Notes: generated by a model from the sequence alone, not told the origin. A stretch of 64,000 nucleotides of DNA from Candidatus Thorarchaeota archaeon (GCA_003345545.1 PRDH01000026.1:86944-150943), one strand, 5' to 3'; counted from the stretch's first letter, positions 22,610 through 27,014 are shown. Program-made: numbers and translations.

Positions 22610-22754
22610 ATTCTCTTCTCCGTCAGTCAGAGTCTGATTTGCAGAACATTCGAACAATTCATGTATTCAATGTTGCTGAAACAACACCTTGATCCATTCA
22701 ATGCTGGGTAAAGGCTTAATGGCCATGCTGATGATGAAGGCACAGCGACCTGAG

Positions 22755-23288
22755 ATGAATTCAGACCTTCACGCACAGATGAGGACCAGCGATTATTATA
22801 TATTGTCAGTAACGGGACTGCTCTTTCTCTTCCAGCTCCTGCTCCTTTTCTTCTTTTTCAATGCGGGGCTCAATGTCATACTTCTGGGAGTAGGCTGGAT
22901 TCTCCTCATCCCTACTTTTCTTCTGCTTACACTCTCGGCGAACATTCTGCGTAGATACGGAAATGCAGTCGAAGGAAAATCCCGGTTCCATACCACATCC
23001 CTTGTGAATCGTGGCGCCTATGCAATCATTCGGCATCCGCTCTACTTGGGATGGATTATGATGTCTCTTGCCCTGGTGTTAGTATCCCAGTACTGGCTAA
23101 GCGCCTTCTTCTCGGGAATCATGATCCCATTAGTCCTGACAGAGATTCAGCGCGAGGACAAATTCAACGAGATCAAATTCGGACAGGAGTATTGCCAGTA
23201 TCAACAGGATATTCCTATGTTGAATGTATTCGCCGGTCTATGGAGATACTATGCGAGAAGAGAACGTCGTCAGCCCCTGCAGAGTTAG
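22755..23288 (+). CDS. Isoprenylcysteine carboxyl methyltransferase / PEMT-family membrane methyltransferase
   Basis: LVNRGAYAIIRHPLYLG and ED..NEIKFGQEYCQYQQ..P; start uncertain. Confidence 0.8.
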   Translation: MNSDLHAQMRTSDYYILSVTGLLFLFQLLLLFFFFNAGLNVILLGVGWILLIPTFLLLTLSANILRRYGNAVEGKSRFHTTSLVNRGAYAIIRHPLYLGWIMMSLALVLVSQYWLSAFFSGIMIPLVLTEIQREDKFNEIKFGQEYCQYQQDIPMLNVFAGLWRYYARRERRQPLQS

Positions 23289-23411: not shown

Positions 23412-23777
23412 TTGAATAAGAAGACGCTTGGCATCCTGCTTATGACATCGCCGTACACCTTTCAAAACAGCCACACTTTCTATGATCTGTGCAAGGCAAC
23501 GCTTGAGAGAGGTTATGGCGTGAAGGTCTTCCTTTTCGTAGATGGTGTCAATAATGCGAAACTGAAACAGGAGCCTGACCCCGATAGACCAATGAATGAC
23601 AAGCTCCTGGAGCTAGCCAGCTCAGGAGTGGAGTTTCAGGCTTGCGGCCTCTGTACCTCAGCTCGTGGTTTTGATCAGAGAGGTGGCGACTTCGTGCAGG
23701 GCGTGGAAGTAACAGGCCTCACTGAGTTCGCCGAACAGGTCGGTCAGGTGGACCGATTCATCACTTTCTCATTATAG
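23412..23777 (+). CDS. dsrE: DsrE/TusD-like sulfur relay protein
   Basis: TSPY, VFLFVDGV and ACGLCTSARG (acceptor Cys region). Confidence 0.85.
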   Translation: MNKKTLGILLMTSPYTFQNSHTFYDLCKATLERGYGVKVFLFVDGVNNAKLKQEPDPDRPMNDKLLELASSGVEFQACGLCTSARGFDQRGGDFVQGVEVTGLTEFAEQVGQVDRFITFSL

Positions 23778-23788
23778 GAGGGACTAAC

Positions 23789-24139
23789 ATGGATTTCGTA
23801 GAAAAGAGAGTGCTGGTTCTCATCACTAGTAAACCGTTCGGGAAGATTATTGCAGCGGAGGGCTGGCGAGCAGCAGTGGGTATGTTCGGCATGGACCATC
23901 AGTCACAGTTGCTCTTCATTGGTGATGGTGTGTACGGCCTCGTCAAGGATCAGGATATTCAACCAATTAGAATGTTCAAGTCGACATTCGAGAGCTTTGA
24001 CGGACACATCTATGCAAGCAAGAAGTCACTAGACGAACGGGACATCAATGCAAGTGAGGTCTTTGATGAAGTCGAGGTACTTGACGACGAAGGGGTTGCG
24101 AGGACATTTATTGAGAATGAAGTCATCATAACGTTCTGA
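23789..24139 (+). CDS. dsrF: DsrF/TusC-like sulfur relay protein
   Basis: SKPFG, LFIGDGVYGLVKDQ and SLDER; position in the operon. Confidence 0.82.
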   Translation: MDFVEKRVLVLITSKPFGKIIAAEGWRAAVGMFGMDHQSQLLFIGDGVYGLVKDQDIQPIRMFKSTFESFDGHIYASKKSLDERDINASEVFDEVEVLDDEGVARTFIENEVIITF

Positions 24140-24152
24140 GGAGGAAGCAAAT

Positions 24153-24452
24153 GTGAAGTACATGATTCTGCTCTCGAATGAATGCATGAGTATCAAAGAG
24201 GTAGTCACGGGTCTGAAAAGCAGGAATATTGAGGTCGAACTGCTGCTCCTTCAGGACGGAGTGTATCTTGTAGACAAGGGAAACCCTGAATCCAAGGAGC
24301 TTAAGGAGCTTGGATTGAAAGTCCATGCACTCAAACATCATGTGGTTGAACGAGGAATTGCTAGTCGCTTGGCAGTCGATGTTGACCTTGTCGATTATCC
24401 TTCGGTCGTCGACCTTCTCATGGAGAAATCCGATAAGGTAATCTCCTTGTGA
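24153..24452 (+). CDS. dsrH: DsrH/TusB-like sulfur relay protein
   Basis: LLLQDGVY, HVVERGI and VDYPSVVDL. Confidence 0.82.
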   Translation: MKYMILLSNECMSIKEVVTGLKSRNIEVELLLLQDGVYLVDKGNPESKELKELGLKVHALKHHVVERGIASRLAVDVDLVDYPSVVDLLMEKSDKVISL

Positions 24453-24493: not shown

Positions 24494-24901
24494 CTAGGCT
24501 CTTTTCCCAAGGACAATGAGAACTTGACCCAATAGGTCGCCTGGAAGAACAGAAGCTTTGATTCGAGAACTGAACATTGACATATCGGCAGTCCTTTCCT
24601 CGGAATACTTTTTCATTTCAGTGCTACCGATACAGGCCAATTCACCCATGCCATTAGAGCCGTAGAATGACCGAAAGACTACGTGGTACGCTGGAACCTT
24701 GATAGGCTTGATAGAGACTATCTTCGTTTCACCACCTTGATACGCCACTTTTTCTGATGCGATGACTGGCACCAATCTTGTTTTTGACCAGTCGAGTGCA
24801 ACTCTGGCTTCCTCTAGTCCCTCAACTGAAGTTCTCATTCTATCCATTCCGAGACTTCCAAGGTCTTGCCCGCAGCTAATGATATAGATTTTTTCTGACA
24901 A
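24494..24901 (-). CDS. DUF22-domain archaeal protein
   Basis: IKPIKVP...GMGEL...EERTAD...GDLLGQV pattern. Confidence 0.6.
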   Translation of the reverse strand: MSEKIYIISCGQDLGSLGMDRMRTSVEGLEEARVALDWSKTRLVPVIASEKVAYQGGETKIVSIKPIKVPAYHVVFRSFYGSNGMGELACIGSTEMKKYSEERTADMSMFSSRIKASVLPGDLLGQVLIVLGKRA

Positions 24902-25402
24902 TTCGTGCCACCCTGTTTTCAGCCGGCAATGTTACTTGTCCTTGTTTCGCAACGAGACCTCTGCCGCTTAAGTAGTTAACCAAACTGCCACATTGAATGA
25001 TAGTTTGACCACTTTCGGATTGTATGATTAAGAAGATCATGAACATAATCAATTCATGCACGTCAGAAAATTCAAGGCGACTTGTCCATTCGGGCACAAA
25101 GTGCCACGAGGAGCGCTATCCGAGCATTGTCAATATTTATTATGCTTTGATACGTGAAATATCTCAAGGCGATTTGGCCTTATCATGAAACTAACGATAA
25201 CTCTATCCGAGCTAGACTGGATGAATGCAGTTGGTCACAATGAGCTTGACTCTGTGAGCGACTGTAGCTTGTTCTCAGCAATTTCCTCCGCACGTGTAGG
25301 TGGATTGCTTGCCTTTGCAGAGTCAGAAGGGACTACATCCTCAAAGACATCTGCAACTGGCAAGGCGTTGATCGCTTTTGTTTCACGTCCGGAGGTGATT
25401 TA

Positions 25403-25549
25403 GTGGGCAGACATAATCACTCAAGTAGACACGAACACGAAAGGAAGAGAGGGCGACGTCATGACTCGAACCATTCTAGAGATGACTCGAGTAGTAGTCG
25501 ACTGAAGATCCTAGGCGACCAGCAAGGGCTTGGCTGGGCTGGGGCATAA
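25403..25549 (+). CDS. Putative 48-aa His/Arg/Ser-rich microprotein
   Basis: Perfect GGAGGTGA RBS (25391-98) then GTG; MGRHNHSSRHEHERKRGRRHDSNHSRDDSSSSRLKILGDQQGLGWAGA; below the ORF-track cutoff. Confidence 0.5.
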   Translation: MGRHNHSSRHEHERKRGRRHDSNHSRDDSSSSRLKILGDQQGLGWAGA

Positions 25550-25645
25550 TATATAGTCCAATTGGGCTGATGGGAACCAGTCTTTTCCCGAACGCTCTGT
25601 ATCTTGGGACTAGGAAAGAGACTGTGTTTCTTCTTATGAAAGGAC

Positions 25646-25686
25646 GCATGGGCTGCGGACCAAGCAGCCTGTGCCTCTCTTTTTCT
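25646..25686 (+). terminator. Hairpin plus pyrimidine tract
   Basis: GCATGGGCTGC-ggaccaa-GCAGCCTGTGC followed by CTCTCTTTTTCT. Confidence 0.6.
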
Positions 25687-25833
25687 CATCTCTTTTTATA
25701 ACCTTCACTGGGGCGTTTCGCTGATAATCAAGTTGCAAGGTTAATAACCGCTCATGACAATCTCTACACATAAGTGTGCACGAACTACTCCACGTGAGAG
25801 GGTTGAGAGATTGCCGAACTGGGAGCTGGAAAC

Positions 25834-26499
25834 TTGATGCTTCAGTCGATTTGGGACCAATTAGATGAGATATTTGGGCCGATTCTTCATCCGATATTTG
25901 ATCCGGTTTTCGCAGCGTTGCAGGACGCTTCTCTGAGATCAATGCTTCTTTCAGCAATCATTTGGTCATTCCTCGTTATTGGAGGGTTAGTCTTCTTAGT
26001 CTACGAGGGCCGTGTCTTTGTAGGTTTTGTCACCGGTTCTAAGATTGCGCCTCTTCCACCTGCAGTATCTTCAAAGAGCACTAGCAAAACAAGGACGCAG
26101 TCAGAGTCAGCAAGACTCCGTAAGACGAGCGCTGAGAAATCTAAGCAGGAGGGGCAGGAGCGTGAGAGCAAGGTTCAGGCGAGCGGTGTGAGAGTCAGTG
26201 CAAAGATGAAGAAAAGCAGAGAGGCCGTCTTGCTGACTGTCACGGTGCATAATGGAAGTGACTCGAAGATTGACATGGTTGTGGTAGACATCGATCTTCC
26301 CGCCGGAGTAGACGCCGCTATTGGATCCTTCAGAATGCAGCGCCTTGGGTCTATTCTCGCAGGACAATCCGAATCCAAGGAATTTCTCCTAAACGTTCGA
26401 GGGGGCGACCTGAGTCAGATCGGGGGTTATGTGGAGTTTCTTGGGGCATCATATGAAGTGTCAAAAATCCCCCTTCCAGCAATTGAGGTGGGAACCTAA
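25834..26499 (+). CDS. Single-TM protein with charged linker and C-terminal Ig-like beta-sandwich
   Basis: TM at about aa 38-58, S/K/E-rich linker, then LTVTVHNGS...LGSILAGQSESKEF...IGGYVEF. Confidence 0.72.
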   Translation: MMLQSIWDQLDEIFGPILHPIFDPVFAALQDASLRSMLLSAIIWSFLVIGGLVFLVYEGRVFVGFVTGSKIAPLPPAVSSKSTSKTRTQSESARLRKTSAEKSKQEGQERESKVQASGVRVSAKMKKSREAVLLTVTVHNGSDSKIDMVVVDIDLPAGVDAAIGSFRMQRLGSILAGQSESKEFLLNVRGGDLSQIGGYVEFLGASYEVSKIPLPAIEVGT

Positions 26500-27014
26500 T
26501 GAGTAGCCAGAATGAGGACCGTGTCCCTGAGAACAACTTCATTCCAGCCATACTTGGTTTCATCAACTTCGGAATTCTGCTCGCAATAGCAATGCCGCTC
26601 ATGAGCTATAGCACAGGACTCTGGGACTTCACTTTTGTGGCTGCTGGAGTCTATTTTGAACTGAAGTTCATCCGGTGTCTCAGCAGAGCGCATGAGCAGC
26701 CTCTGACCCGAGTGAGTCCACGCAACCGTAACTCCATTCCGAAAGAGGGCATCTATGCAAGAATCAGGCATCCAGTCGCCGCGGGAGCCATCTATCTGAA
26801 TATTGCCTTGTTGTTCTTCTTCAGGTCATTGTACTTGATTCCAATCGTACCCGTCTTTGGAGCCATGTGGTATCTCTATGCTAAATACGATGAAGACATC
26901 ATGCTCGAACGATTCGGCGATGAGTACAGGGAGTACATGCGTGGTACGAGCATGTTTCGCGGGGCGGGTTTTGATCAGCAGCGCCTTGCGTCTTCAGGTT
27001 ACGACATGTACTAG
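26499..27014 (+). CDS. ICMT/PEMT-family membrane methyltransferase
   Basis: GIYARIRHP and DEDIMLERFGDEYREY; TAATG coupling to the upstream gene. Confidence 0.78.
   Translation: MSSQNEDRVPENNFIPAILGFINFGILLAIAMPLMSYSTGLWDFTFVAAGVYFELKFIRCLSRAHEQPLTRVSPRNRNSIPKEGIYARIRHPVAAGAIYLNIALLFFFRSLYLIPIVPVFGAMWYLYAKYDEDIMLERFGDEYREYMRGTSMFRGAGFDQQRLASSGYDMY

Follow-up and report, generated by a model that had tools for sequence, protein, structure and literature searches.

A leader open reading frame ending on the start codon of a conserved microprotein gene in Thorarchaeaceae suggests translational coupling

Introduction

In bacterial leader-peptide attenuators such as those of ermC and cat, translation of a short upstream frame remodels an mRNA structure that hides the ribosome-binding site (RBS) of the downstream gene. 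Among overlapping archaeal gene pairs, 13 of the 14 tested cases were strictly coupled (PMC6728339). Such coupling needs overlaps or very short gaps and collapses at gaps of about 20 nt (PMC10666635), and the model in which RNA unfolding provides the coupling has been reviewed (PMC12548453). In the mRNAs of type I toxins, the RBS is masked by intramolecular structure and activation proceeds through an upstream open reading frame (ORF) (PMC11228461). Here we describe an intergenic locus of a Candidatus Thorarchaeota archaeon in which a leader ORF of 72 codons ends on the GTG start codon of a conserved gene for a microprotein of 48 amino acids (aa). The locus lies on a stretch of 64,000 nt (GCA_003345545.1 PRDH01000026.1:86944-150943), referred to as the window, from an assembly of 2.69 Mb that is 92.9% complete (G000). 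All features of the locus are located on the plus strand.

Like the overlapping pairs of Haloferax volcanii and Escherichia coli (PMC6728339, PMC10666635), the two frames are co-directional with a 1-nt overlap or a short gap, and the Shine-Dalgarno (SD) sequence lies inside the upstream frame. Unlike in those pairs, the upstream partner is fast-evolving, SD-less and leader-like, and coupling is predicted here from sequence. The likeness to the ermC and cat attenuators is that translation of the upstream frame would remodel an RBS-hiding structure; the present leader differs in being much longer, in ending on the downstream start codon and in harboring no conserved stalling peptide. The reading of the locus as a self-contained bicistronic unit of the single Asgard family Thorarchaeaceae, in which the microprotein is gated by the leader ORF and translationally coupled to it, appears moderately probable as a whole.

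Results

The microprotein gene and its distribution

The gap between a DUF22 gene (24494-24901, minus strand) and the gene of a 221-aa membrane protein (25834-26499, plus strand) contains only two blocks that match genomes of the same genus in DNA searches. The first (25125-25203; 75-84% identity in G001, G017, G011 and G003) harbors the promoter, the 5' untranslated region (UTR) and the start of the leader ORF, and the second (25372-25553) corresponds exactly to the SD and the 48-aa ORF. Frame, start and stop positions of this ORF are kept in the same four genomes. The start codon is ATG rather than GTG in G017, G047 and G081, and the G003 gene has a 21-nt in-frame deletion. Pairwise ratios of non-synonymous to synonymous substitution rates (dN/dS) range from 0.01 to 0.40, with dS near saturation; between G005 and G011b, 13 synonymous changes were counted and one non-synonymous change. 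Because ORF, SD, start and stop are conserved, dN/dS is low, and both GTG/ATG switches and an in-frame indel occur, the 48-codon GTG ORF at 25403-25549 is, on comparative grounds, a real gene. The original prediction, made from this DNA without database searches, had proposed a hidden 48-aa microprotein in a self-contained transcription unit. Both proposals gained support, the former from the conservation of ORF and SD in 18 loci.

Profile searches of 400 genomes of the phylum located the gene in 17 genomes, all of the window's own family (the window's genome and 16 of the 85 other family genomes; six genera); outside this family no match was obtained. The 18 loci analyzed come from these 17 genomes, with G011 carrying both subfamilies of the genus. 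Among 5.8 and 1.84 billion predicted proteins four members were present, two of them with mis-called starts that read through the SD. A 30-nt DNA pattern spanning the SD, the start and the N-terminal codons recovered three loci on Joint Genome Institute (JGI) metagenome contigs, all duplicates of loci already in the set, and had no match on viral contigs. Within G000 no second ORF combines the N-terminal motif with the GW[S/A/T]G-x end described below, and each motif scan gave one unrelated extra match (C21, C44). A search for longer or fused forms of the microprotein found none. A second match in G003 was left out of the 18 loci as a chimeric remnant. In this genome an ORF of 101 aa (L032:1270-1572), 3.4 kb upstream of the microprotein locus, ends in the C-terminal motif of the microprotein (RLTVIQNQQELGWSGI), and its residues 1-76 match the signal-peptide N-terminus of neighboring proteins of about 770-900 aa (one of 1,203 aa) in 12 genomes of the same genus. 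A local rearrangement seems to have left this chimeric remnant behind. A G003 ORF of 116 aa with the same terminal motif was rejected as a fused form, a chimera being uninformative.

The window's locus belongs to a 'long' subfamily of 41-48 aa. The 'short' subfamily (36-39 aa; nine loci from four genera) is paralogous to it. A third subfamily of 50 aa occurs in genus g23, and the G048 locus (39 aa) fits no subfamily cleanly. The short-subfamily member of G047 (L026:1456-1611) has 52 aa, as its frame extends 14 codons beyond the usual end (GWSGV-ANSYKRSGQSWTFL). In every other member a stop directly follows GW-x-G-x.

The leader ORF

The leader ORF (25185-25403; 72 codons plus TAG) and the microprotein gene share one G, the TAG and the GTG forming TAGTG (25401-25405). 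From its ATG to the microprotein initiation region the leader frame is open in 16 of 18 loci, compared with 2 of 36 for the other two frames. The probability that it is open by chance, calculated from dinucleotide shuffles of each leader, is 0.03-0.19 per locus (0.03 for the window's locus). The leader ORFs comprise 48-72 codons and have no SD of their own. ATG-to-start distances in the long subfamily are 157, 193 and 217 nt, the differences being multiples of three. The leader stop is located at -7 to +11 relative to the microprotein start in 16 of 18 loci, and the layouts comprise TAGTG or TAATG, GTGA, TGA inside the SD and TGA directly before the start. G062 shows the GTGA overlap, and elsewhere stop and start are 0-4 nt apart. 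With TAGTG, the window's pair has the co-directional organization with an overlap or a gap of a few nt that characterizes termination-reinitiation pairs. A leader ORF stopping on the GTG, and with it translational coupling, had been mentioned in the original prediction as an option, which is now backed by these comparative data.

The leader peptides show dN/dS values of 0.31-1.62, with 0.39 for the window versus G001. Values are 0.32-0.43 in the long subfamily. Five of the six short-subfamily pairs within the genus have 0.67-0.88 and the sixth 0.38, and a pair from other genera reaches 1.62. For the same genome pairs of the short subfamily, leader dS (0.24-0.65) lies below microprotein dS (0.76-1.41), which points to constraint at the RNA level. 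The leader ORF is maintained mostly as a frame, and its peptide is weakly constrained. In the g23 genomes G063 and G061 (L021, L022), a separate 12-codon ORF (MNWRIALSHIRR in G063) starts 6 nt after the stop of the long frame and ends in the SD. The arrangement looks like a single leader that an indel has divided; G062, the sister genome, retains an undivided frame with GTGA.

Shine-Dalgarno sequence, promoter and transcript ends

The SD GGAGGTGAT (25391-25399) is complementary over all its 9 nt to the 3' end of the 16S rRNA (...GGATCACCTCCT), the 16S gene being located on another contig of the same genome. The sequence GGAGGTGA occurs 58 times in the 2.69-Mb assembly, 18 times directly before a start codon. 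The spacing from GGTGR to the start codon is constant at 4 nt.

Upstream of the leader ORF, a TATA box of the TTTA[A/T] type (TTTATTAT, 25136-25143) is followed by the motif CAAGGCGAT (25165-25181), which contains a small hairpin (AAGGC/GCCTT). AGGCGA is present at this place in 18 of 18 loci. A regular expression located a TATA-like box 30-33 nt 5' of it in 17 of them, and its spacing to the leader ATG is 16-18 nt in all. From archaeal TATA spacing we infer that CAAGGCGAT marks the 5' end of the transcript. The combination of promoter and motif occurs once in the G000 genome, and a shared regulon was rejected for this reason. Three extra (A/T)AGGCG copies lie near the promoter motif, at 25060-25087, 25361-25367 and 25511-25519. 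The extra copy ACGTCAGAAAATTCAAGGCGACTTGTCC is located 92 nt upstream of the promoter-proximal 28-mer and is 75% identical to it, and the 5' end is predicted to fold back onto the copy at 25361. As repeated operators the extra AAGGCGA copies (25074, 25362 and 25513) were rejected, since they are not conserved in other loci and species. A 10-nt direct repeat flanking the promoter (CTATCCGAGC, 25116 and 25203) is exact, as the original prediction had claimed. Even G001, the closest relative, does not conserve it, and an origin as insertion scar was rejected on this basis.

Behind the microprotein gene, the minimum-energy structure contains a 3'UTR hairpin with the arms CAGTCTTTTCC (25578-25588) and GGAAAGAGACTG (25613-25624). 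Because only G001 shares this hairpin with the window, no comparative support for it is possible. A terminator-like hairpin with an 11-pair stem (25646-25674) follows together with the T-rich tract CTCTCTTTTT, the whole element extending to 25698. Most other loci also contain a strong hairpin 3' of the stop codon, often with T runs after it. The TATA-like box, the SD, the GTG ORF, the 72-codon ORF, the second hairpin and the terminator-like hairpin with its T tract are all present where the original prediction had placed them.

Structure of the mRNA

For the nine short-subfamily leaders, RNAalifold returned unprompted a long-range helix of 15 pairs between the leader from codon 23 onward and the SD plus start codon. 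One of its sides is a GCCCAC-pyrimidine tract; the other consists of SD, spacer and GUGGGC, the latter being the start codon and codon 2. In the short-subfamily alignment 91% of the cells pair, compared with 44-60% when the partners are slid against each other. Five of the 15 pairs change on both sides, and the covariation score was reached by 3 of 500 shuffles. G047 combines an AUG start with GCCCAU, whereas the others combine GUG with GCCCAC. Covariation is also seen at the base preceding the start codon (U-A three times, A-U three times), and the G before CCC is kept despite a codon change from Ser (TCG) to Gln (CAG). The duplex of leader and SD/start, in which the RBS would pair with sequence inside the upstream ORF as in RNA-unfolding coupling, beats shuffled leaders in seven of nine short-subfamily loci (p <= 0.04), compared with z about 0 in the window's subfamily. 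In a second helix of the short subfamily, the 5' motif (GCGAAUGUA) pairs with UACAUUCG, which is located about 38 nt upstream of the start. Here 90% of the cells pair, versus 17-46% for slid partners, and U-A to C-G changes occur. These comparisons support RNA masking of the SD/start region and of the 5' end in the short subfamily. As in the MS2 coat-lysis and rpmI-rplT pairs (PMC12548453), the SD and start of the short subfamily pair within the upstream frame, and a translating ribosome would therefore open them. The present system differs in being archaeal, in having a second helix that ties the 5' end to the pre-SD region, and in that the masking helix is without statistical support in the window's subfamily.

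At the window's locus the 5' motif (25165-25181) can fold back onto CAAGGCGTTGATCGCTTTT (25361-25379), located 24-42 nt 5' of the start codon. The predicted energy is -17.4 kcal/mol versus -11.1 +/- 2.4 for shuffles (z = -2.66, p = 0.017). Corresponding z values are -4.59 in G001 and -1.98 in G003, with a mean of -1.3 over the 18 loci, and in most of them the fold-back partner precedes the start by 30-43 nt. For most loci, fold predictions place SD and start in paired regions, at P(paired) of 0.5-1.0. The folding energy of the window's leader has a z of -1.92, and 9 of 200 shuffles fold equally well. In minimum-energy and two-sequence consensus folds, CCTCCG within the leader ORF (25285-25290) is the predicted partner of the SD segment CGGAGG (25390-25395). 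This helix is invariant in G001 and absent in G017, G011 and G003, and it scores no better than shuffled leaders. A local hairpin between the SD and codons 5-7 is plausible in G017, G011 and G003; it was rejected, as its outer stem is not kept in G000 and G001. The nested leader stems of the original prediction are not conserved, and the mid-leader varies in sequence and length. In G001 the stem TGACTCTG/CAGAGTCA has two uncompensated mismatches, and the stem AGCAAT/ATTGCT has one mismatch and one wobble.

The microprotein

All members share the N-terminus M-[G/S/A/N]-R-[H/Q]-[N/S]-x-S and the C-terminus [I/L]-x-[V/L]-[I/L]-x-D-x3-4-GW[S/A/T]G-x, with M1, S7, D39, G44, W45 and G47 being invariant. 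The two motifs, MGRHN-x-S and D-x3-4-GW[S/A/T]G-x, are joined by a variable linker rich in Arg, Asn, Ser and His. The composition as a whole is Arg/His/Asn/Ser-rich, hydrophilic and basic, without a hydrophobic stretch. AlphaFold2, run with an alignment of 21 sequences, gave a mean predicted local distance difference test (pLDDT) score of 58.9, with no secondary structure and no fold. The models suggest a basic disordered protein of 36-50 aa, which most likely would act by docking on a partner. In Pfam, NCBIfam and PADLOC no family passes for either frame. The best hit of a profile search against the PDB (E = 1.3) is a 15-residue chance match, and the search of the ESM Atlas returned low-complexity look-alikes (best score 0.82). 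The microprotein appears to represent a new disordered family with no known relatives among Pfam, NCBIfam, PADLOC, PDB and Atlas entries.

The ATCUN motif, which binds Cu(II) and Ni(II) at the amino terminus, has the pattern NH2-Xaa-Xaa-His (PMC7701195). After the expected removal of Met1, the N-terminus of the microprotein would be Gly-Arg-His and match this pattern. M-[G/A]-x-H is found in 18 of 21 members, Ala-Arg-His and Gly-Thr-His variants included, and three g23 members have Gln. The Gly-Arg-His end, and extra HxH pairs in the long subfamily, resemble ATCUN peptides and His-rich Hpn-like proteins (PMC7701195, PMC8704837). Unlike in those, the three g23 members carry Gln for His, yet the rest of the protein is kept. 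Metal binding therefore cannot define the family, and it may serve as a lead.

Genomic context

Upstream DsrE/DsrH-like genes and the DUF22 gene are common to the long-subfamily loci. In the window, three consecutive DsrE, DsrE-DsrH and DsrH-like genes (TusBCD/DsrEFH-type) at 23412-24452 are followed by the divergent DUF22 gene (24494-24901), an arrangement that is syntenic in G001, G011 and G017. Two ICMT/PEMT-like membrane methyltransferase genes (22689-23285 and 26499-27011) flank the region. The second overlaps the gene of the 221-aa membrane protein (TAATG), which itself has no Pfam match. Short-subfamily loci follow a gene with a short-chain-dehydrogenase-like C-terminus or a gene ending like an M24 peptidase, as judged by eye from unprofiled translations. 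No neighbor recurs from one subfamily to another, in agreement with a self-contained unit.

G001 has a 1.1-kb insertion relative to the window between 25687 and 25729, where the window lacks a radical S-adenosylmethionine (SAM) gene present in G001. The 259-aa radical SAM protein of G001 (L010:469-1248) matches only the core (about positions 220-390) of models of class-B B12-dependent radical SAM methyltransferases (HpnJ, MJ0865 and PhpK), whose N-terminal domain is absent.

Discussion

In the explanation that we favor, the TATA promoter would fire about 18 nt before an SD-less AUG, and ribosomes would translate a leader ORF of 48-72 codons, the frame of which is presumably kept open by selection. 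These ribosomes would terminate on or a few nt from the microprotein start, which has the strongest possible SD. Synthesis of the microprotein would therefore be coupled to translation of the leader, either by termination-reinitiation, by ribosomal unfolding of an inhibitory mRNA structure, or by both. One component of this structure, common to all subfamilies, would be the tendency of the 5' end to pair with a segment located 25-45 nt ahead of the start; the short subfamily would add a pairing of the mid-leader GCCCAC-pyrimidine tract with SD and start codon. Because the leader frame ends exactly on the microprotein start, synthesis of the microprotein probably depends on translation of the leader frame. 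Comparison of the loci shows that both frames are maintained and their arrangement is conserved, and it supports the RNA pairing of the short subfamily. The transcript ends, the coupling itself, the docking on a partner and any signal modulating translation of the leader are what we infer beyond this.

Several observations weigh against the leader-gated explanation. At the window's locus, the leader pairs with SD and start no more strongly than shuffled leaders do (z = -0.19), and since z is about 0 in the window's subfamily, RNA masking of this region is demonstrated only for the paralogues. The two long-range helices cross and would therefore have to form a pseudoknot or alternative folds, and their pairing fractions of 91% and 90% were counted on the same sequences from which the helices were derived. 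In G061 and G063 of genus g23, the long leader frame ends 52 nt before the microprotein start. An SD of this strength might also allow the microprotein to initiate independently of the leader. Finally, the promoter, the transcript 5' end and the translation of both frames have been deduced from sequence patterns.

The two frames could instead encode two functional microproteins of one complex, with the overlap serving stoichiometric co-translation and not regulation. Gene pairs coding for subunits of heteromeric complexes show an excess of short overlaps (PMC10666635). The leader frame stays open, its dN/dS in the long subfamily lies below 1, and weak shared leader motifs (W..G.[S/Q]PT and [F/Y]TFD) recur in the short subfamily. 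However, the leader peptides vary from 48 to 72 residues and are barely alignable between subfamilies, and the higher dN/dS values of most short-subfamily pairs indicate little constraint on them. The best-conserved leader codons coincide with RNA helices, a nucleotide being kept where Ser changes to Gln, and neither frame has a family match; such a complex thus seems unlikely. A leader that controls SD access as a riboswitch or RNA thermometer, as suggested in the original prediction, leaves the conserved open frame unexplained if it is a pure RNA sensor. It would account for the predicted pairing of SD and start in most loci and for the conserved 5' hairpin and long-range helices, and helices of 6-8 bp could melt with temperature. 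Rfam gave no match above the gathering threshold in the 64-kb window, and the matches over 24800-25950 (E = 4.5-8.9) are noise. A conserved multi-helix core is also missing, since the mid-leader is unalignable within the genus, varies from 157 to 217 nt between the two start codons and does not keep the proposed stems. Conservation is confined to two helices, which touch the 5' end and the SD/start region. With a z of only -1.92 for leader folding in addition, a sensor appears quite improbable. Scans for tRNA and tmRNA found nothing, and a C/D-box small RNA was dismissed, the snR58 match being weak (E = 6.4).

The masked RBS and the upstream ORF also resemble the described mRNAs of type I toxins (PMC11228461), and the original prediction had listed a type I toxin-antitoxin-like locus. 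In such a hok/mok-style system, a toxic peptide would be silenced by mRNA fold-back and a coupled upstream ORF and released upon loss of an antisense RNA. A small ORF with a hidden RBS, an overlapping or adjacent upstream ORF and a 5'-end fold-back are shared with hok/mok, and the patchy distribution in 16 of 85 family genomes would suit a toxin. In contrast to a membrane toxin, the product is hydrophilic, basic and predicted to be disordered, without a hydrophobic segment. Neither antisense RNA nor processing is evident from the sequence: in the alignments, no AT-rich box resembling a promoter is conserved on the opposite strand, and G001, G017, G011 and G003 do not conserve the TATA-like tract that follows the stop codon. 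PADLOC gave no match and the DNA pattern is on no viral contig. The loci are chromosomal and syntenic within each subfamily, and were therefore inherited rather than mobile. Together this makes a toxin very improbable. Even less can be said for a ribosomally synthesized and post-translationally modified peptide (RiPP) precursor whose GW[S/A]G core is modified by the neighboring radical SAM enzyme. This idea draws on the Trp in the conserved C-terminus and on the radical SAM gene (PF04055, E = 5e-7), which in G001 follows the microprotein gene at a distance of about 250 nt and has homologues next to the locus in G003 and G011. The gene is convergent and adjoins only 3 of 18 loci; it is absent beside the G000, G017 and all short-subfamily and g23 loci. 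Searches with tblastn detected no homologue anywhere in G000 (92.9% complete), so that a link to the microprotein was rejected. Nor does the N-terminus behave like a disposable leader, its conservation equaling that of the C-terminus. A RiPP precursor is thus highly improbable.

The leader-gated explanation can be extended to the function of the product. In this joint reading, a Thorarchaeaceae-specific regulatory microprotein would bind Ni(II) or Cu(II) with its Gly-Arg-His (ATCUN-type) end and His-rich segment, or nucleic acid with its basic linker, and would dock on a partner with its GW[S/A]G-x tail. A pseudoknotted fold-back of the mRNA, opened only by the leader-translating ribosome, would license its synthesis. 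In this full form the reading is speculative and rather unlikely. If true, it would describe an archaeal, antisense-free counterpart of hok/mok-type control that acts on a non-toxic effector.

In Asgard archaea, hardly any small proteins or cis-acting leader ORFs have been charted, and both escape gene callers. With a leader ORF that stops on the start codon of a microprotein gene, the locus is a clear and conserved example of this arrangement. In its paralogues, covarying helices cover the SD/start region and the 5' end, a design that is testable by compensatory mutations in archaeal reporter systems, and the two sharply conserved terminal motifs of the microprotein offer a handle for finding a Thorarchaeota-specific partner.

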